Shown in pieces: positions 6,911 through 31,140 of a DNA stretch of 32,000 bases. Within the stretch, counting starts at the first letter, position 1. Each line of letters opens with the position of its first letter. Location of the stretch: contig WBXG01000011.1 of assembly GCA_008932965.1 (NCBI GenBank), positions 1 through 32,000 on the forward strand, read 5' to 3'. Below the pieces are notes generated by a model. The model did no database searches, was not told the origin of the DNA, and saw only the letters and a program-made list of their open reading frames with translations. The DNA is from Verrucomicrobiota bacterium. Lineage in GTDB: Bacteria; Verrucomicrobiota; Verrucomicrobiia; Chthoniobacterales; UBA6821. The translations under genes and the position numbers were made by a program.

Positions 6911-7175
6911 TTAGACCAAATATTTCCTATCAATCACCTGCAGAAGCTAGGAAGCTAGGAAGCCAGGTCGATGCTGCATTAGACTCACATTGTGGCTTGA
7001 GCAGTATGTATGGCTACAGCCGTCTTCAAAATATGTGTCTGCGTTGACTCGCTCGCTCCCGCTCGTCTCGCCCTTTCAGGGCTGCCCCCTTAAAGCCAGG
7101 GCAGTCTCCACCGCGGTCTCCCGACCGCCGGTGGTTGCCCCATCAGTCTTGGCGGCCTCCTCTACCACGATCCAT
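6911..7175 (+). mobile_element. MITE-like palindromic element, copy B (long variant; right TIR missing)
   Basis: The left end ttagaccaaatatttcctatcaatcac aligns with the copy C (reverse complement) and F left arms. The apex is gagcagtatg..ctacagcc. The right arm ccccatcagtcttggcggcctcctc aligns with F and E. It contains the nested module 7043-7135 and an 8-bp tandem gaagctag x2.75 (6943-6964). Similarity fades at or through the stop codon of the TPM gene. Confidence 0.75.
7043..7135 (+). repeat. Nested GC-rich hairpin module inside copy B
   Basis: The flanks are identical to 73-110 and 126-156. The central hairpin is ctgccc-(11 nt)-gggcag (7082-7104), where copy A has ctgtc-taaa-gacag. Confidence 0.8.
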
Positions 7176-7905
7176 CAGCACCACCACCACCGCTCTCACC
7201 ACCTCCCCCAGAAAAGCCGCCCCAATCATTACCACCACCAGTGCCTCCTCCAAGACCACCCCCTCCGATAAACCAGCCTCCACCGCCCCCATTTTTACCT
7301 CCAGAAGATCGCTTTTGAAAAAAAGAAATAATGATGATGAGTAAAAAAAACCCGATTGGAGAAAAGAGAAGCCTTTGCCAAGAAACGATTTGTTTCTTTT
7401 TTAAGGGGTTCTCGTTTTTATATTCCCCTGCTGTTGCTTTCATAATGGCATGGATGCCATCTAGGAGAGCTTGATTAGGGTTTCCTTGTTGAAAAAGAGG
7501 AGTCATTACCTCATCGATAATCTGCTTGCAAAGGGCATCTGGCAGTGCTCCTTCTAATCCATAACCAGTCTGAATATGAATTTGATGCTCCTTCGCAAAG
7601 ATGAGAAGTAAGACACCATTGCTATTTTTTTTCGTTCCCAAATGCCAGGTGCTATAAAGTTGTTGTGCATAATCATCCAATGAAGTCCTGCTCGAAAATG
7701 TAGGTTCAATCACTACGACAATTTGATTCGAAGTCTGTTGATCAAAGCGTTCTAGTTGAGTATTGAGCTCCATAGCTACTTGAGGAGAGACCATACTGGC
7801 CTCATCATTAAAATAGTTTTTGGGTGATGGGGGTAATCCCTCTGCTCCTTGAAGAGGAATAAAACTCCATATTAGAAGAGCAAGAAAAAGGGTCAAGCGG
7901 GCCAT
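7162..7905 (-). CDS. TPM-domain (YgcG-like) protein with signal peptide, TM helix and Gly-rich tail
   Basis: 247 aa. It has an N-terminal signal-like segment and TPM-domain sequence (NQIVVVI..., GVLLLIFAKEHQIHIQTGYGLEG). A TM helix follows, and the Gly-rich C-terminus ends in GGGADGSW, which is typical of this family. Confidence 0.85.
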   Translation of the reverse strand: MARLTLFLALLIWSFIPLQGAEGLPPSPKNYFNDEASMVSPQVAMELNTQLERFDQQTSNQIVVVIEPTFSSRTSLDDYAQQLYSTWHLGTKKNSNGVLLLIFAKEHQIHIQTGYGLEGALPDALCKQIIDEVMTPLFQQGNPNQALLDGIHAIMKATAGEYKNENPLKKKQIVSWQRLLFSPIGFFLLIIIISFFQKRSSGGKNGGGGGWFIGGGGLGGGTGGGNDWGGFSGGGGESGGGGADGSW

Positions 7906-8931: not shown

Positions 8932-9115
8932 TTAATCCAGAAACTTCATACTAATCGTAGCGAGAGGGCCGCGAAGCTAAGGTGGGCAAGGCGAGACCTG
9001 AATTCTGACGACAGCTGTGTAAGTATGCACTGCCCGAGGAAGGCTTCGAGATCAACGTAGTATCCAGTTGGCTTCCTACCTACCGTAAGTGATTGGCATG
9101 AAATATCCGGGTTAA
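8932..9115 (-). mobile_element. MITE-like palindromic element, copy C (184 bp, inverted relative to the other copies)
   Basis: The ends are ttaatccagaaacttcatac and gcatgaaatatccgggttaa. The reverse complement aligns along its whole length with copies B and F (ttaacccggatatttcatgccaatcac..ggaagcc..gttgatctcgaagcc..gggcagtgcata..acgattagtatgaa). Confidence 0.85.
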
Positions 9116-14177: not shown

Positions 14178-14360
14178 TTCGCTCGCCTATTTCATACTGA
14201 TTCTGAAACACCTTGCTAGGGCCTGATGTATACTCTTTCTGGATCGAATGCTCCTCGAGCAGTTTGCCTCACACAGTGGTTGTCAGGCTTCATCGCTCGC
14301 TTTGTCCTATCAGCATTGGCCTTCTCATCGTCACAATCAGTGCGATATATCAGGGGATAG
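14178..14360 (+). mobile_element. MITE-like palindromic element, copy D (183 bp, more diverged)
   Basis: The left end is ttcgctcgcctatttcatac. The core ggatcgaatgctcctcgagcag..cacacagtggttgtc aligns with copy A. The right arm atcagcattggccttctcatcgtcacaatcagtgcgatatatcaggggatag aligns with F and G1. Confidence 0.7.
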
Positions 14361-17291: not shown

Positions 17292-18515
17292 ATGGCTCAA
17301 CGATCTCCCTCCTCTGTCCTGCTCATCAAGCTACGGCATCATGGAGATGTCCTTCTTGCTACACCGGTTGCCAGAGTGTTAAAGGCTCAGTTTCCCAATT
17401 GTCAGATCGATTTTCTCGTCTACGAAGGAACAGAGGCACTGCTAGAACACAATCCTGATCTACGTCAGGTTTGGATCTGGCATCGAGCGGCCCGTGGGTG
17501 GAATCGTCTTAAAAAGATCCTTCATCTTTTTTTTCAACTACAGCACCAGCATTACGACTTGGTGATCCATCTTTCCGACCAGATGCAGGGGGCATTATTG
17601 GCAGCGCTTTTAAGGCCGCACCAATCTATTGGTATTGACTATCCCAAACGTCGTCATTTTTTTTGGAGCTCCTGCTTTACAACATTAGTTCCTCTGTTTC
17701 CAAGTAACACTCATCATACTGTAGAACAAAATCTAGCTACTCTAGCAGCAGTATTTCATGCTAGTCATGACACCATAGGTGAGAGTACACACTCGTCAAG
17801 GAGGGCTTCGAGTTCAACACCCCATCAGCCTTCACAGCTTCCTCGTTACGATCAGTATGAATTATCCGGTCCAGAGATAATTTTCAACAAGAGGTTCGTT
17901 CCCGAATCCCCCAATCACATGACGGATCCTATGTTGAGATGCCGATTGGTTATTAGCCAAGAAGACCGCTTATTTATTCAAGAGCAGCTTCAAAAAACCT
18001 CATTTTCCACTCCCTATCTTCTCATTCATCCAACAGCACGCTGGTTTTTTAAGTGCTGGGAAGAGGAGTCCTTTGCAAAACTCATCGCCCATTTTGCCAA
18101 TCAAGGCTGGTCTATTCTGTTAACCTCTGGCCCGGCCGTTGAAGAGCAAGCTATGGTTGCTACAATTTTAGAGAAAGTTCATTCCGACCGCATCTACTCA
18201 CTTGCAGGTCAGTTAACATTAGGTCAGCTTGCAGCAGCAATTGAAGGAGCCACTCTTTTTATCGGTGTTGATTCTGTCCCAATGCATATGGCTGCAGCAT
18301 TAGAGAAAGATGTCGTTGCTCTTTTTGGTCCAAGTAAAATCAATGAATGGCATCCTTGGATGACCCGCTATCACCTAGTGAAAGCCTCTGATTATGGTGA
18401 TTTGATTGATCCAGATGATGTAAGAACAGAGACAGTAGTGCGCTATCTCTCTATGATTCCGGTGGAGGAAGTTATTTCAAAAGTTGAACAAATGTTACAC
18501 CTTTCTTACTCGTAG
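17292..18515 (+). CDS. Family 9 glycosyltransferase (LPS heptosyltransferase, WaaQ-like) carrying an in-frame MITE-like insertion in the interdomain linker
   Basis: 407 aa. GT9 motifs are IKLRHHGDVLLATPV, HTVEQNL, LIHPTARWFFKCW and GVDSVPMHMAAAL. Residues about 151-194 are encoded by element copy E. Confidence 0.85.
   Translation: MAQRSPSSVLLIKLRHHGDVLLATPVARVLKAQFPNCQIDFLVYEGTEALLEHNPDLRQVWIWHRAARGWNRLKKILHLFFQLQHQHYDLVIHLSDQMQGALLAALLRPHQSIGIDYPKRRHFFWSSCFTTLVPLFPSNTHHTVEQNLATLAAVFHASHDTIGESTHSSRRASSSTPHQPSQLPRYDQYELSGPEIIFNKRFVPESPNHMTDPMLRCRLVISQEDRLFIQEQLQKTSFSTPYLLIHPTARWFFKCWEEESFAKLIAHFANQGWSILLTSGPAVEEQAMVATILEKVHSDRIYSLAGQLTLGQLAAAIEGATLFIGVDSVPMHMAAALEKDVVALFGPSKINEWHPWMTRYHLVKASDYGDLIDPDDVRTETVVRYLSMIPVEEVISKVEQMLHLSYS
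17742..17874 (+). mobile_element. MITE-like element, copy E (about 133 bp), embedded in frame within the GT9 CDS
   Basis: The left terminus is ctagcagcagtatttcatgc. The core ctcgtcaaggagggcttcgagttcaac matches copy C. The right arm ccccatcagccttcacagcttcctcgttacgatcagtatgaattatccggtccag matches F and C. No stop codon occurs in the host reading frame. Confidence 0.8.
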
Positions 18516-19649: not shown

Positions 19650-20074
19650 AAAAATGATTGACTAGCCTTTTTTCGTTTTAGCATCATAGAAAAGATGTAC
19701 AAACCAAGTATCCAAGAACATTTATCGCTGATATCACTGTCACTACCTTTTACAGTTATATCTTGCATGGTACTGTTCTTCTTTCATCCCTGTAAATTAA
19801 GTCACGAGCGAATGTGATTGCGTTCGACGGAACGCCATTAAAAAGAGGGATTTTATCCATTACTGGCTTCGTATTTAAACGAATCTATTAATCCCTACCG
19901 TTCAAAATTCATCTGATTAAGTCAATCAATCGTGTTGATCGTTAGTGAAATACTAATTTTCTTCCTTTCCTTTCTCACTTGTTAGCAACGGAATGCTTGC
20001 TACCACTGACCAGGAGTCATGGTGCATTTTCATATCACAAAAAAACAATACTAATCCCTTTCAATATTAACAAA

Positions 20075-21946
20075 ATGTCTGCTTTAACTCAAAATTCATC
20101 CCCTAAATTCAATCTCCAGGTAGAAAGAAAAAGGCCTGTATGCTCTTCATGGCTAGCGCACAGATCGCTTCTTTTCATAGCATCCTTATGGAGTATAGGG
20201 AGCGCCTCTGCTATTTTTATGATACTATTTTCTCAATCTCTCCATGCGCAGGAAATAGATCCAAAAACCGATCCTATTGACACTGAGCTTTCAGGGCCAC
20301 TTGCCGTAATTCCAGAAATGATCTCTGTGGAAGATGCTGGAAATCTCGCTGATCCTATTACTGGATTGGGCGCGGTACAAGAAGCATTCCACATCGGAAA
20401 ATACCCTGTAACTAATTTACAATGGACAACTTTTCTCAATGCTGTGCACGTTGTTGAGCAAAATCCTGAAGATCCCCGCAATCTTTATCATGAGGAGATG
20501 TTTCAGAAAAATATTGGATCTGCTCCCTTATCTAAGTTAACCGATGTTATAAGAACCAGAATTGATGCAACCAATTTTCTAGGTCACAAGATCACGGTTT
20601 TTTTCCCAAAAGACTGGGGAACTCCCTTAGGACACTATTTTGGTTCGCTTCCTGTGACAGGAATAAGCCTAGATGACTGTAAGCGCTATCTCAATTGGTT
20701 ACATCATGGGGCTCCAGATTTTTTAACCTTATGTCGAAAAGACCCATCGTTAGATCCCTTTACTTTAAGTGAAAAGCTCTTAGCTATAACAGAAACTGGA
20801 GCCTATGATTTTACAAATGGCAAAAATGGAGAGCTTATGGAAGGAGCGCGCTATTTTCTCCCTAATTTAAATCAGTGGTACAAGGCTGCTTACCATTACG
20901 GTGGAACAACAGATGCTACCTACTGGTCTTATCCTACTCAAAGCAATAAATTACCAACTCAAAGCAATAAATTACCAACTCAAACAATCATCCTTGAACT
21001 CTTCAAAAATCCTTCTAGTGCTAAAACAGGAGCTAATTTTGCACAAGTTTTTTATAATTATAAACGATATTATATAGATGGATGTTATGACATGGAGCAT
21101 TTATTTAGTGATGAAACCATGCCTTCAAAAGAAAATGAATATTATCTTGCAACACCTGTCGGTTTTTTCACAGATTCACCCAGCTCTTATGGAACCTATG
21201 ATCAAGGAGGAAATGTAAGAGAATGGACGAGCGATTCTGTAATAACGTTGCAAGGAGAAGAAATGATTGCTCCAGGAGGATCATTTGAAGAGTCCAGTGA
21301 TCAATTATTAAGCACTAATGCAAACAAAAAATCTTTTCCCCCGTCCTGTAGAATTAAAACTATCGGTTTAAGAGTATGCTCATTAGCGACTGTTGGTAAT
21401 CTTAACAAAGATCCAATTTTGTCAGATGCTGCCTCGAACTCCCTTAACAGTTCCTTAATTCTTCAGTCATTTACAAATGTAGCCATTGCACAAACGACAG
21501 CTTATGGTCTTGAAGCTGCTTTAGCAGTTGGTATTAAATATGTTAATACGGGAAGGATAATGACTCTGAGTGAAATAGTGCGCCCTTTTACCTATCAGCG
21601 AAATATTGTAAATGGTATCTTAAGTGTTGTTCTTGTCATGGGTGAAACAGGTCGAGCAACAGTGGCTCCAATAAAAAAAGAGGACTTATGGAATATAGGA
21701 TTCGTTGTTGCCTCTACCATAGCTACGATGCTCCTGACTGAAGGTTCTGCTTTCTTTGTTGAAGCCGCCGTAGGAGAAGTGCTCAACCTGCTCAAAAACT
21801 CTAATTTGATCACAATGACAGTTCAAAATAGCGTTACTGAATTAGCATGGCCCAGATTGATTACCAACATGTGGTACATTGGCCTGAATACTTATCTGAC
21901 AACAAAATCAGATTTAAAATATTTTGAAGAACAACAACTCAATTAA
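20075..21946 (+). CDS. FGE/SUMF1-domain protein with N-terminal anchor and C-terminal hydrophobic region
   Basis: FGE-sulfatase-family motifs are present (FHIGKYPVTNLQWTTFLNAV, YGTYDQGGNVREWTSD, APGGSF). There is an N-terminal hydrophobic segment (LLFIASLWSIGSASAIFMILF). The C-terminal roughly 170 aa contain several hydrophobic segments. I prefer the ATG at 20075 over the TTG at 19979. Confidence 0.75.
   Translation: MSALTQNSSPKFNLQVERKRPVCSSWLAHRSLLFIASLWSIGSASAIFMILFSQSLHAQEIDPKTDPIDTELSGPLAVIPEMISVEDAGNLADPITGLGAVQEAFHIGKYPVTNLQWTTFLNAVHVVEQNPEDPRNLYHEEMFQKNIGSAPLSKLTDVIRTRIDATNFLGHKITVFFPKDWGTPLGHYFGSLPVTGISLDDCKRYLNWLHHGAPDFLTLCRKDPSLDPFTLSEKLLAITETGAYDFTNGKNGELMEGARYFLPNLNQWYKAAYHYGGTTDATYWSYPTQSNKLPTQSNKLPTQTIILELFKNPSSAKTGANFAQVFYNYKRYYIDGCYDMEHLFSDETMPSKENEYYLATPVGFFTDSPSSYGTYDQGGNVREWTSDSVITLQGEEMIAPGGSFEESSDQLLSTNANKKSFPPSCRIKTIGLRVCSLATVGNLNKDPILSDAASNSLNSSLILQSFTNVAIAQTTAYGLEAALAVGIKYVNTGRIMTLSEIVRPFTYQRNIVNGILSVVLVMGETGRATVAPIKKEDLWNIGFVVASTIATMLLTEGSAFFVEAAVGEVLNLLKNSNLITMTVQNSVTELAWPRLITNMWYIGLNTYLTTKSDLKYFEEQQLN
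20936..20984 (+). repeat. Perfect 21-bp tandem repeat (2.3 units) inside the FGE-domain CDS
   Basis: actcaaagcaataaattacca occurs at 20936-20956 and 20957-20977, followed by actcaaa. It encodes PTQSNKL-PTQSNKL-PTQ. Confidence 0.95.
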
Positions 21947-22127
21947 CCCGTATGTTTCATCCCGATCTACTGCGTAGATCGGGAAGTCATATGGATGCTG
22001 CGTTAGACTTGCATTTTGATTTGGGCAGTATGTACAACATACAGCCCTGCATCAAAATGCTCGCCTGCCTTACCCCATCAGCCTTCGAGGCCTCCTCGTT
22101 ACGATCATTATGAAATATGCGAGCTAG
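21943..22127 (+). mobile_element. MITE-like palindromic element, copy F (185 bp), filling the gap between two convergent genes
   Basis: The ends are ttaacccgtatgtttcat and ttatgaaatatgcgagctag. The central imperfect palindrome is at 22011-22060 (gcattttgat..ggcagtatg-tacaa-catacagcc..atcaaaatgc). The TAA stop of the + strand gene (21944-21946) and the TAG stop of the - strand gene (22124-22126) lie in the element tips. Confidence 0.88.
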
Positions 22128-22795
22128 CGTGCAAGAATCTGGTACTCCTCTTGCTTTTTTACAATGCTTTTTTCAGGTAGGATCCCATGCCATGAGACCA
22201 TAGGATAGATTAAGCTCTCCCTTCCAATAATTGATCCTGGGCTCAATACAGCATTGCATCCAATTTCAACATAATCACCAAGAATAGCACCAAATTTTTT
22301 GAGGCCAGTGGAAATTTTGAGGTTCTCTATTTTGATGATAATTTCCTGCCGATCTAATCGGACATTAGAAAGAATAACACCTGCCCCAAGATGAGCACGG
22401 TAGCCTAAAATAGAATCGCCAACATAGTTAAAATGGGGGACCTGGACTTCATCAAAGAGGAGTGAATTTTTTAATTCACACGAGTTTCCAATAACCGAAT
22501 TATTTCCAACAATAACATTTTCTCGAATATAACACCCTTTACGCAACTGACATCCTTCCCCAATCCAGGCAGGACCTAGAATTACAGCCCCCTCCTCAAT
22601 AATGGTATTTTTCCCAATAAAGACATTTTTTCCAATATAAGAATTTCCATTCTTAATTCCATAATTTGCTGGAGTGAGGTAATCAGCAAGATAAGAAGAA
22701 ATATTGGAAAGAATCTCCCAGACTCGCGAATTTCTGTTGATCAAAATCTGATGATCTGTATGGCGAAGATCAAGGTAAGCATTAGGATGAAACAT
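22124..22795 (-). CDS. Left-handed beta-helix (hexapeptide-repeat) transferase, GlmU/G1P-nucleotidyltransferase C-terminal-domain-like
   Basis: It carries repeated hexapeptide motifs (IGKNVFIGKNTIIEEGAVILGPAWIGEGCQL..., VGDSILGYRAHLGAGVILSN). I prefer the ATG at 22795; the track start at 22900 would overlap the upstream GT9 by 50 nt. Confidence 0.75.
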   Translation of the reverse strand: MFHPNAYLDLRHTDHQILINRNSRVWEILSNISSYLADYLTPANYGIKNGNSYIGKNVFIGKNTIIEEGAVILGPAWIGEGCQLRKGCYIRENVIVGNNSVIGNSCELKNSLLFDEVQVPHFNYVGDSILGYRAHLGAGVILSNVRLDRQEIIIKIENLKISTGLKKFGAILGDYVEIGCNAVLSPGSIIGRESLIYPMVSWHGILPEKSIVKKQEEYQILAR

Positions 22796-22850
22796 AGAAT
22801 TTAAAGGTACTGTATGAGGGCTGTTTGTTAGGAAAATAAACGAGATTATT

Positions 22851-23948
22851 TTATTTTTTAAAATGAAGTATCCGCTCCATTGCATCAAAAACTTTTTCAA
22901 AAGATATCTGACTCATCTCACTAAGCTGAGGATCTTTTTGTTTAAGTAGAAGTTCTTTTTCAGGCTTGGCAAGTTCGATGATTTCATGGCCCGGGGTATT
23001 GTCTAGTGGACCATACATACTAGTGGGGCTGCGGTAGTGGAGTAGCGCAAGAGTGGGGCAACCCACTGCAAAACCAAGATGCATCACGCCAGTATCTGTG
23101 CTCACAAGCATGGAAGCCTCCTTGAGGAGTGCGGCTGTCTCCTCTAAGGTTGTTTTTTGAACAAGATTGATGACCCAAGGAGTTGCTTTTTCAATAGCTA
23201 TTCCTACCTCGTAATTGTCATGCCCCCCCGTTAAAATGATCTGATGAGGATATCTCTCCTTAAACCATCTGATGGCGTGAATATAAGATTCTACGGGCCA
23301 GTTTCGCCAGGAGAGTGTTTTACCTCCTCCTGTTTGAAAAATAATAAAAGGTTGTTTTAAAGCAGGGTGGTGTTGGTAGAGAAGTTTTACCTCCTCCTCC
23401 CTTACCTGATAAACCATACCTCGATCGACCTTTGCCCCACCGGCGGCAGTAGCTACTTTCAAGATTTCTTTCACAATATGGGGTTCATCTTTCGTAACCA
23501 CTGGATGTGAGAGAAGGAAGGAAAAACGTTGACAGCGCTCCACAGCGCCGAAAAAAGCATGTCGATTCAAAAGGTATCCTAGTGGAACCGCCTCTTCATT
23601 GACATGCAGGGCAACAACTAGATCTGGTTTACTATTTCGAAAGTGCTGTAAAAGCTTGAATTGAGAAAGAGGCGATTTACTCAGTGGAAGGACTTCATCT
23701 ACGAATGGATGGTGACGTGCTACTGACCCACGTCGATGGTGTGCTGCGACAATGAGTTTGGACTGAGGATACCCCTTTTTTAAACTTTTTATTGCTGCTG
23801 AATCAAAAAGACTATCTCCAATTCCAGTTGTGCTAAAAACTAAAATGAGTTTAGGGTTCTTTGGGAGGGGCCATGGAACTGGTGGGAAGACCAATGCAAG
23901 AAGACGAAAAAAATGCTCATTAAAAAATCGAGTAATCTTGTTCCACAT
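22851..23948 (-). CDS. Family 9 glycosyltransferase (heptosyltransferase-like)
   Basis: 365 aa. GT9 features are ILVFSTTGIGDSLF, a short linker after the HIVKEILK motif, FQTGGGKTLSWRNWP and STDTGVMHLGFAVG. Confidence 0.85.
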   Translation of the reverse strand: MWNKITRFFNEHFFRLLALVFPPVPWPLPKNPKLILVFSTTGIGDSLFDSAAIKSLKKGYPQSKLIVAAHHRRGSVARHHPFVDEVLPLSKSPLSQFKLLQHFRNSKPDLVVALHVNEEAVPLGYLLNRHAFFGAVERCQRFSFLLSHPVVTKDEPHIVKEILKVATAAGGAKVDRGMVYQVREEEVKLLYQHHPALKQPFIIFQTGGGKTLSWRNWPVESYIHAIRWFKERYPHQIILTGGHDNYEVGIAIEKATPWVINLVQKTTLEETAALLKEASMLVSTDTGVMHLGFAVGCPTLALLHYRSPTSMYGPLDNTPGHEIIELAKPEKELLLKQKDPQLSEMSQISFEKVFDAMERILHFKK

Positions 23949-25696: not shown

Positions 25697-25762
25697 TTTA
25701 ACCCGCATATTTCATACTCATCACGGCCTCCTCGTCACGATCAGTATGAAATATCTGGGCTA
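25697..25762 (+). mobile_element. Minimal (66-bp) member of the MITE-like family, copy G1
   Basis: ttaacccgcatatttcatactcatc..gatcagtatgaaatatctgggctag. The two TIR arms are separated by only about 16 nt, with a 13-bp perfect inverted repeat (atatttcatact/agtatgaaatat). Confidence 0.85.
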
Positions 25763-25909
25763 GTTTTTCAGATTGGATCAGGCTGAGTCAACTGCATCGA
25801 TGTATTGTAGAGCAACTAAAAAATTTATAACCCCTAAAAAGGGAGCTCGTCATAGAATGTTCTTTGCGAGCATAAGGAAGACTTGCTTCTCTCTGGTTTT
25901 ATAGGCATC

Positions 25910-26093
25910 TTAACTCGAATATTTCATACTCAATCCTTGCGGCTTGGGGAAAGCTCATTGTCACTGTGCTGGTCTCGATTGCGAGTGGGGAAGTAGGGCT
26001 CCTGCAGCCCCGCATCACAATCTTTCTCCCTCCTTGTACTAATAAGCTTTGCACGGCGCCTCATGACGCTTCAGTATGAAATGCTCGGATTAA
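25910..26093 (+). mobile_element. MITE-like palindromic element, copy G2 (184 bp)
   Basis: The ends are ttaactcgaatatttcatac and gtatgaaatgctcggattaa. The left arm cggcttggggaaagctcattgtcactgtgctggtctcgattg is collinear with copy H. The right arm cacggcgcctcatgacgcttcagtatgaaat is collinear with copy A. Confidence 0.85.
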
Positions 26094-30956: not shown

Positions 30957-31140
30957 TTAACCCGCATATTTCATACCGATCTATTACGGCTTGTGGAAAG
31001 CTCATGATTACTGCGTTGGTCTCGAATTGTGATTTGGGCGGTATGTACTCATACAGCGGTCGTCGCAATCCATCACCTTCCATGTCATCATCAGAATTCG
31101 CTGCGCTTCGTGACGAACCAGTATGAAATAGGCAGGCTAA
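30957..31140 (+). mobile_element. MITE-like palindromic element, copy H (184 bp)
   Basis: The ends are ttaacccgcatatttcatac and gtatgaaataggcaggctaa. The core actgcgttggtctcgaattg and the apex gcggtatg-tact-catacagc, followed by cgtcgcaatccatcaccttc, are nearly identical to copy A (1-72). It starts 4 nt after the PBP2 stop codon. Confidence 0.9.

Follow-up and report, generated by a model that had tools for sequence, protein, structure and literature searches.

Selfish DNA that is read in frame within proteins has been known above all from Rickettsia, and we were interested whether such an event has also taken place in a verrucomicrobial glycosyltransferase gene. The gene, 17292-18515(+), lies in a stretch of 32,000 nt of contig WBXG01000011.1 from a Verrucomicrobiota bacterium (this whole stretch is called the window below) and encodes a member of glycosyltransferase family 9 (GT9). 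A preliminary description made from the sequence had proposed that its segment 17742-17874 is a copy of a repeat element read through in the host frame, in the manner of the Rickettsia palindromic elements (RPEs). Our analysis confirmed that this segment is a degenerate copy of a transposable element of the miniature inverted-repeat type (MITE) inside the GT9 coding sequence (CDS), stop-free in the host frame, and showed that its family is derived from an insertion sequence (IS) of the IS1380 family with a 4-bp YTAR target.

Anatomy of the insertion and of its host protein

The host gene, the inserted copy (copy E) and the second GT9 gene of the window are described by the following features.

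17292-18515 (+): GT9 glycosyltransferase host gene, 407 amino acids (aa), intact (open reading frame (ORF), PF01075, AlphaFold2 (AF2) model, Foldseek)
17742-17745 (+): left target-site duplication CTAG, its CTA being the host Leu151 codon (sequence reading)
17746-17870 (+): MITE body of copy E, 125 nt, degenerate, IS1380-derived, corresponding to residues 152-193 in the host frame (blastn, nhmmer, orthologues, AF2)
17746-17770 (+): left terminal inverted repeat (TIR), decayed, CAGCAGTATTTCATGCTAGTCATGA compared with the consensus CCCGGATATTTCATACTGATCGTGA, encoding AAVFHASH (nhmmer, AF2)
17846-17870 (+): right TIR, well kept, CGATCAGTATGAATTATCCGGT, encoding …YDQYELSG (blastn, nhmmer)
17871-17874 (+): right target-site duplication, CTAG decayed to CCAG (sequence reading)
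17875-17940 (+): native linker EIIFNKRFVPESPNHMTDPMLR, homologous to EKIIPKDALPLYPYHGTEPSLR of the orthologue P0003 (alignment)
22851-23948 (-): paralogous GT9, 365 aa, short linker, no insert (alignment)

As claimed in the preliminary description, the element lies wholly within the CDS, which translates into 407 aa without a stop codon; residues 151-194 of the product are exactly the peptide given there (LAAVFHASHDTIGESTHSSRRASSSTPHQPSQLPRYDQYELSGP). The site reads ACT CTA G[125 nt]CCA GAG at the DNA level, with a net gain of 129 nt or 43 codons made up of the 125-nt element and its 4-nt duplication. The number of about 44 inserted residues has to be corrected to 43, because the CTA codon of the first Leu belongs to the host and lies within the target duplication. 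In the right duplication CCA is the codon of Pro194, a position at which Leu is the family norm (in-frame copies of the family end in …YEI[SC]GL), and the last G opens the Glu195 codon. Copy E reads LAAVFHAS…SSRRASSSTPHQPSQLPRYDQYELSGP, which is the phase of the family, and is devoid of about 51 nt of the left-central part of the 176-nt family element.

A blastn search with 17742-17874 against the rest of the window led to matches at 22072-22121 (86%, 50 nt, E=2e-10), 25721-25763 (E=2e-7) and 9006-9110 (E=7e-5). Similarly, a 176-nt nhmmer profile from which copy E was left out (it was made from 22 copies of exactly 176 nt, namely 30961-31136 of the window and 21 of other genomes) matched 17819-17870 (E=4.8e-11) and 17780-17869 (E=1e-9). 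RNA folding gave z=-0.63 against shuffled sequences for copy E and z=-5.9 for the intergenic copy 21947-22123; a functional mRNA hairpin in the CDS copy was rejected, as its fold is no better than that of the shuffles. No known RNA family was returned when the whole window was searched against Rfam at the gathering threshold.

The host protein has the PF01075 domain and the GT-B fold of two Rossmann-like domains, which identify it as a GT9 member. Its AF2 model, based on an alignment of 102 sequences, is a confident GT-B fold (predicted local distance difference test (pLDDT) 89.5; predicted template modelling score (pTM) 0.87), and Foldseek searches with this model led to GT9 structures with TM scores of 0.79-0.87, including 3tov (TM 0.83-0.87), WaaF 1psw and WaaC 6dfe, in agreement with a sequence search of the PDB. 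Means over blocks of 10 residues fell below 60 solely over residues 161-210, where the greater part of the insert (152-194) and some of the native linker are located. The helix 143-159 continues through the first eight insert residues (AAVFHASH), with disorder from about residue 160. The proposed location between the two Rossmann-like domains, directly after HTVEQNLATL, was borne out by the model, in which the insert appears as a disordered surface loop, a point for which an AF2 prediction had been suggested as a check. All 39/39 columns that are invariant in the 102-sequence alignment (the host protein included) are kept, and the modelled polypeptide has an intact fold. The full-length 407-aa protein is presumably translated, with enzyme activity retained; ASSSTPHQPSQLPR is an example of the tryptic peptides expected from it.

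An identical protein is encoded on a JGI lake-metagenome contig, and P0001, 99% identical to the host protein, is annotated to a Verrucomicrobiae metagenome-assembled genome (MAG) under the NCBI name 'putative LPS heptosyltransferase III'. Judged from this annotation and those of relatives, the putative role of the enzyme would be the transfer of ADP-heptose to the lipopolysaccharide (LPS) core. The adjoining genes, encoding a PfkB kinase, a GT2 and a GT4, fit an envelope-glycan cluster, and the order PfkB-GT9-GT4 of this conserved envelope-sugar cluster is kept at orthologous loci.

Empty sites in orthologues and comparison with a sister strain

In an alignment of the window protein, its in-window paralogue and 26 orthologues, an indel corresponding exactly to this segment was observed, as anticipated. 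The linker is free of an insert in 20 of the 26 orthologues, and the paralogue proved to be short at the linker, as had been described. The insert-free orthologues measure 345-367 aa. Removal of the insert had been calculated to leave about 363 aa; the value is 364 aa (407 - 43), and its agreement with the lengths of the relatives holds. Empty sites are present in the orthologues P0002 and P0003. In P0003 (64% identity), the closest of them, NLATL is directly followed by EKIIPKD, compared with NLATL[43 aa]EIIFNKR in the window protein, and the native linker is common to both proteins, EKIIPKDALPLYPYHGTEPSLR aligning to EIIFNKRFVPESPNHMTDPMLR. Comparison with the empty orthologous site, a check already suggested in the preliminary description, gave a 125-nt element flanked by CTAG/CCAG and 129 nt net.

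The contig of P0003 (L002) carries an intact MITE at 1652-1827, flanked by TTAA/TTAA, just downstream, while the linker site is empty. According to the preliminary description, its proposal would have to be given up if orthologues lacking any intergenic copies still had the same linker sequence; P0003 does not speak against it, since its contig has the element and yet an empty linker. The insertion of the L002 copy took place at a TTAA that precedes the end of the P0003 gene by six codons (1648-1670). Its terminal repeat, read in another phase, now encodes the C-terminus VNSDISC* of P0003 and provides the TGA at which it ends. A stop is supplied by the terminal repeat itself when it is read in the wrong phase.

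The closest strain, represented by L110 (GCA_029981535.1), is 99.3% identical over 21 kb and has every MITE copy in common with the window, without insertion polymorphism. Between the two, 7 synonymous and 3 non-synonymous differences were counted in the host part of the gene, and 0 synonymous and 2 non-synonymous differences in the insert. This pattern would fit a constrained enzyme with a drifting passenger, the counts being small.

Origin of the family from an IS1380 element

GTDB representative genomes were scanned for YTARCCCGNATATTTCATAC, which led to >102 stretches, and pairing of the ends in those loci yielded 99 copies with a modal length of 176 nt and the family TIR CCCGGATATTTCATACTGATCG. 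The stretches are mostly verrucomicrobial (Spartobacteria Kiruna_bin-02438; Chthoniobacterales Tobar2m-G38, SMAG_U8253 and Deming_bin.170), with further ones in Planctomycetota, Omnitrophota and Proteobacteria. Most copies are flanked by direct YTAR tetranucleotides (TTAA, CTAG, CTAA), and flanks of the type CTAA…CTAA reflect a direct duplication and not a part of the inverted repeat. With TIRs, a target-site duplication, dispersed copies, an empty site and a length below about 500 bp without a transposase, the family has the properties of MITEs. A 2-bp TA duplication, as in IS630/mariner-like elements, is disfavoured by the CTAA…CTAA copies and by the CTAG-flanked IS described below (the net gain would be 129 nt either way), and ends like those of integron attC sites (RYYYAAC/GTTRRRY) were rejected after inspection by eye, as one copy alone fits.

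An autonomous element was found in L030 (4912-6720). It measures 1809 bp, has the TIRs CCCGGATATTTCATAC and CTAG on both sides, and is matched by nhmmer at both ends; its ORF was assigned to NF033539, the IS1380 family transposase (E=1.6e-72), and to PF13701. Transposase genes adjoin the same TIR in L105 (73% identical), L048 and a Pseudomonadales MAG. As ends and CTAG duplication are common to both, the MITE family is derived from an IS1380-family IS, and mobilisation of the MITE would presumably be effected in trans by the IS1380 transposase. The same 20-nt end was also found outside the Verrucomicrobiota, in L010, L021, L035, L073 (Pseudomonadales MAG OZ241746) and further loci, where it lies next to IS1380-type transposase genes whose products are about 35% identical to the verrucomicrobial one, so the end is far better conserved across phyla than the transposase. 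In addition, 11 pairs of exactly 97 nt were detected (e.g. L025 2491-2587, L036 343-439 and L075 3796-3892), with one good TIR, a weak partner and CGTC/GACG flanks, which may represent a half-size subfamily or may be an artefact of pairing a TIR with an internal palindrome.

In-frame copies in other proteins and in GT9 orthologues

Occurrence in frame is not confined to the GT9 gene. It was found in many unrelated proteins and is general for the family: 12 of the 99 copies are located inside long ORFs, and 12/12 are read in the same phase, on either strand (L[AT]RIFHTD…DQYEISGL). According to Pfam, the insert separates Transgly (85-251) from Transpeptidase (from 457) at residues 359-447 of a class A penicillin-binding protein (PBP1), and HD (554-636) from ACT (from 932) at residues 853-914 of GlnD. 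In a low-molecular-weight (LMW) phosphotyrosine phosphatase (PTP) the domain is split at profile position ~30, a split domain was also observed in an aldose 1-epimerase (P0198), and P0217 has the order DR2241, insert, Fer4_23. A PMT-family glycosyltransferase has its domain upstream of the insert alone, as does a TamB-like protein, there with a weak domain match. In P0214 (576 aa) the MITE peptide (336-401) lies between Vut_1 (26-164) and the C-terminal domain of an FtsX permease (455-561); this may reflect a fusion of two adjacent genes, or of their gene calls, by read-through of the MITE.

When 1.84 billion representative proteins were searched with a profile of the peptide that the family encodes, 229 matches were obtained. 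Among the best 150, 24 are >=200 aa long, and the remainder are short 'hypothetical proteins' reflecting MITE read-throughs. A word-indexed search with the 61-aa peptide consensus returned solely short spurious ORFs and no long hosts. The short proteins include P0121-P0177, dozens of 'hypothetical proteins' of 45-107 aa from Chthoniobacterales/Verrucomicrobiae MAGs, which correspond to intergenic MITE copies in the open phase; annotations of this type are very likely spurious gene calls.

Independent inserts were also observed in several GT9 orthologues. That of P0030 (L003) reads CTAG[92 nt]CTAA, i.e. 96 nt or 32 codons, with the same TIR motif and phase (L-ARMFH…), and is situated three codons downstream of the window site. 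P0004 (L004) contains another type of small element, which is about 95 nt long, has arms of 28 nt that are near-perfect and occurs in two intergenic copies in its own locus (E ~1e-10), and P0008, P0022 and P0037 have TIR-flanked inserts in a second loop, after the helix ending at window residue 295. The 176-nt nhmmer profile gave no match to the inserts of L003-L007; the assignment of L003 to the family is based solely on its TIR, duplication and phase, and L004, L005 and L006 hold other palindromic elements. The P0037 insert in the second loop (L007 10758-10909) is flanked by CTAA, bears TIRs (GAACCTGTATTCATGC…) and is read in a different phase. Its length of 144 + 4 = 148 nt is not divisible by three, and the frame would have had to be restored by additional indels. 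The presence of unrelated insert sequences in the same two GT9 loops argues for structural tolerance and not for a specific function.

Coding compatibility of the 176-nt element

A modal copy plus its duplication comprises 176 + 4 = 180 nt, which equals 60 codons. In the phase that reads the YTA of the duplication as Leu the consensus is open in both orientations, with a forward peptide LTRIFHTDRDEEAAKADGV…DRYEICGL and a reverse peptide LTRIFHTDLLRRPGSQMD…PHQPSRPPRHDQYEISGL. Stops are absent from the forward phase in 17 of the 22 exact-176-nt copies and from the reverse phase in about 14 of them, with 1-8 stops in the other four frames. As the arms of ~55 nt mirror each other, forward and reverse readings are the same phase by symmetry. 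The chance that both phases are open was calculated as 0.7% with a plain shuffle and 2.5% with a null model keeping the palindromic arms, which is suggestive of selection on the element and is not a proof of it.

It is a tentative idea, and in our estimate a rather unlikely one, that the 176-nt family has been shaped for coding-compatible insertion and colonises coding sequence as an extra niche, in which case the RPE strategy would have been reinvented independently in Verrucomicrobiota on the basis of IS1380. The 60-codon length, the Leu codon provided by YTAR at both junctions and the fact that most copies, intergenic ones included, have this phase free of stops in either orientation point in this direction. 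If it were true, the mechanism would be experimentally tractable for the first time, with transposase and target rule known.

Weighing of the explanations

From the boundaries, the empty sites, the autonomous parent and the in-frame relatives, we consider it highly probable that an IS1380-derived MITE was inserted in frame into the GT9 linker, was tolerated there as a loop and has decayed since. An IS1380-type transposase acting in trans would have inserted the element at the CTAG within the codons Thr-Leu-Glu (ACT CTA/GAG) and duplicated the tetranucleotide. As YTA is read as Leu, 125 + 4 = 129 nt is a multiple of three and the phase is stop-free, the gene stays open and gains 43 residues. 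These would be tolerated because they lie in a length-variable linker between the Rossmann-like domains and form a disordered surface loop, the first eight of them prolonging the preceding helix. After insertion, the copy would have lost its mobility; the left TIR and the right duplication are decayed, the hairpin potential has disappeared, and the insert would now drift almost neutrally while the rest of the gene is under purifying selection.

Several observations weigh against this explanation. Both TIRs lie inside the CDS, as stated in the preliminary description, but they differ in quality: the right one is good (2/18 mismatches to the consensus), whereas the left one is decayed, with 7/18 mismatches, and is clear only in its ATTTCAT core; the left end by itself reaches no better than E=9.2 with nhmmer. 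The right duplication is CCAG compared with CTAG on the left, and as copy E has 125 nt and the mode of the family is 176 nt, it must be assumed that its source copy was shorter or that 51 nt were later deleted in frame. Empty sites occur in orthologues of 64-66% identity, the sole close relative (99%) has the insert, and no empty site came to light in a near-identical strain. Furthermore, an IS1380 transposase was seen neither in the 32-kb window nor in the 21 kb of the closest strain, and the difference in substitutions is based on very few changes, 2 non-synonymous ones per 43 insert codons against 3 per 364 host codons.

A further explanation that would contradict insertion with tolerance is a young pseudogene, in which the enzyme was inactivated or impaired by the insertion and the frame has stayed open only for lack of time. 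A second GT9 gene only 4 kb away and the size of the insert (43 aa), which is disordered in the AF2 model, would be in line with this. The paralogue, however, is just 22% identical and no backup copy, and the considerable decay of the left TIR and the duplication indicates an old event, after which the 364 host codons nevertheless keep every invariant residue. Together with the 7 synonymous and 3 non-synonymous host differences to the sister strain, the conserved place of the gene in the PfkB-GT9-GT4 cluster and the presence of the same family in frame in genes expected to be important (PBP1, GlnD), this makes a pseudogene improbable. It is hardly credible that the segment is a native, lineage-specific expansion of the linker which resembles the intergenic repeats by coincidence or gene conversion. 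The variable linker length among orthologues and the weak match of the left end to the family might be explained in this way, but not the E values of 2e-10 and 4.8e-11 from independent copies and an independent profile, nor segment boundaries that coincide with TIR ends and a YTAR tetranucleotide, a peptide phase shared with 11 other in-ORF copies, and the same native linker without the segment in P0003.

The insert might also have been exapted, for instance for contact with the membrane or a partner or for tuning of linker flexibility, and be kept by selection. It is indeed retained in all 15 contigs with P0001 (15/15) and in the window, its first residues extend a helix, and at least three independent insertions have occurred in the same linker among the orthologues. 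These independent inserts are unrelated in sequence, though, which fits tolerance better than a specific function, and the low pLDDT of the insert and its 2 non-synonymous and 0 synonymous differences next to a constrained host part also speak against it. We therefore regard exaptation as quite improbable.

Further copies of the family in the window

With copy E, nine copies of the family were detected by nhmmer in the 32 kb, with ends of the form TTAACCCGCATATTTCATACTGATCG / CGATCAGTATGAAATATGCGGGTTAA. The other eight, for which no strand is assigned, are as follows.

1-213: composite copy cut by the window edge, with an extra G+C-rich module (nhmmer)
6913-7165: composite copy with an extra G+C-rich module (nhmmer)
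8932-9114: intergenic copy (nhmmer, E=6e-34)
14182-14355: intergenic copy, diverged (nhmmer, E=7e-19)
21947-22123: intergenic full-length copy, 177 nt, best in-window match to copy E, TTAA at 21943-46 and CTAG at 22124-27 (nhmmer, E=2.8e-46)
25702-25759: minimal 58-nt copy, little beyond two terminal repeats (nhmmer)
25914-26089: intergenic 176-nt copy, TTAA/TTAA (nhmmer)
30961-31136: intergenic 176-nt copy (nhmmer, E=3.9e-46)

The copy 21947-22123 is located exactly between the convergent genes 19979-21946(+) and 22124-22900(-), the TAA stop of the former being in the left TTAA and the TAG stop of the latter in the right CTAG. Either strand of YTAR contains a stop codon, which makes the ends of genes natural sites of insertion; both stops are kept by the duplication. 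A solo terminal repeat was found at 1631-1650 (TTAACCCGGATATTTCAT), the TTAA of which is the stop of the ORF 270-1634; the next ORF starts at 1654, 20 nt on, and no partner repeat was found for this solo end. The extra module common to the two composite copies (69-114/7039-7084 with 96% and 123-177/7102-7156 with 85% identity) includes CCACCGCGGTCTCCCGACCGCCGGTGG and may represent another small element lying within the MITE. On its right side, the copy 6913-7165 abuts the 3' end of the gene 7162-7905(-).

Relation to known elements and significance

RPEs are short palindromic repeats (~100-180 bp) that are found intergenically and in frame in many unrelated protein genes, with nearly half of the copies being intragenic for some RPE families (Ogata et al. 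2000, as summarised in PMC10969869). The verrucomicrobial family is similar in being short and palindromic, in its intergenic and in-frame copies, in its conserved encoded peptide and in insertions that seem compatible with the host fold. It differs in its host phylum, the free-living or freshwater Verrucomicrobiota (here a Chthoniobacterales/Verrucomicrobiae MAG) and not Rickettsia (the distinction is made by host and not by sequence comparison), in its clear TIRs, 4-bp YTAR duplication and IS1380 parent, and in a seemingly lower intragenic fraction of about 5-12% of the sampled copies, compared with nearly half in some RPE families. To our knowledge, TIRs, a target duplication or an autonomous parent have not been established for RPEs, and we know of no mobilising enzyme or insertion rule for the in-frame elements of Rickettsia.

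QMITE1 of Coxiella burnetii (~400 bp, with a 21-bp TIR and a site for integration host factor (IHF)) is Coxiella-restricted and without a known parent IS (PMC5896051). It is likewise a bacterial MITE that overlaps or extends annotated ORFs and encodes peptides. A Coxiella QMITE, suspected from the G+C content of the window (42.6%), was rejected, as the window is verrucomicrobial and the features of QMITE1 differ. Open frames and in-frame host fusions are also shared with intragenic ERIC and other enterobacterial small mobile sequences (Delihas 2007, cited in PMC10969869) and with MITEb/MITEe of Anabaena PCC 7120 (PMC10969869). These are, however, different element families in different hosts. 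We know of no report of a 60-codon module open in either orientation for ERIC or the Anabaena MITEs. The IS1380 family comprises prokaryotic relatives of piggyBac and has been used as its outgroup (PMC10813416), a kinship that fits the TTAA-type target. With the full-length element carrying the NF033539 transposase the MITE shares the TIRs and the 4-bp duplication, whereas copy E, with 125 nt and no transposase, is non-autonomous.

A literature search, which covered sources outside subscription journals, yielded no account of MITEs derived from IS1380, nor of MITEs within proteins of Verrucomicrobiota. The RPE-like behaviour in an unrelated element family, which the preliminary description had considered notable, was thus found, but it is less unprecedented than assumed, as in-frame fusions are already documented outside Rickettsia for ERIC, QMITE1, BOX and Anabaena MITEs (PMC10969869). 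The RPE-like in-frame MITE described here is therefore a new family of a known phenomenon. The transposon family behind it can be recognised (IS1380), its 4-bp target is defined (YTAR) and its phase is fixed, which makes the mechanism unusually explicit. For annotation, 'hypothetical proteins' of 45-107 aa, of which these MAGs contain dozens, should be flagged as MITE read-throughs and not as genes. Many proteins of uncultured Verrucomicrobiota from freshwater and soil show the phenomenon, which provides a natural catalogue of sites that tolerate 40-60 disordered residues, such as the GT-B linker, the interdomain region of PBP1, the HD-ACT region of GlnD and the interior of LMW-PTP and aldose epimerase, and with it a testable system for the contribution of MITEs to the evolution of protein length.

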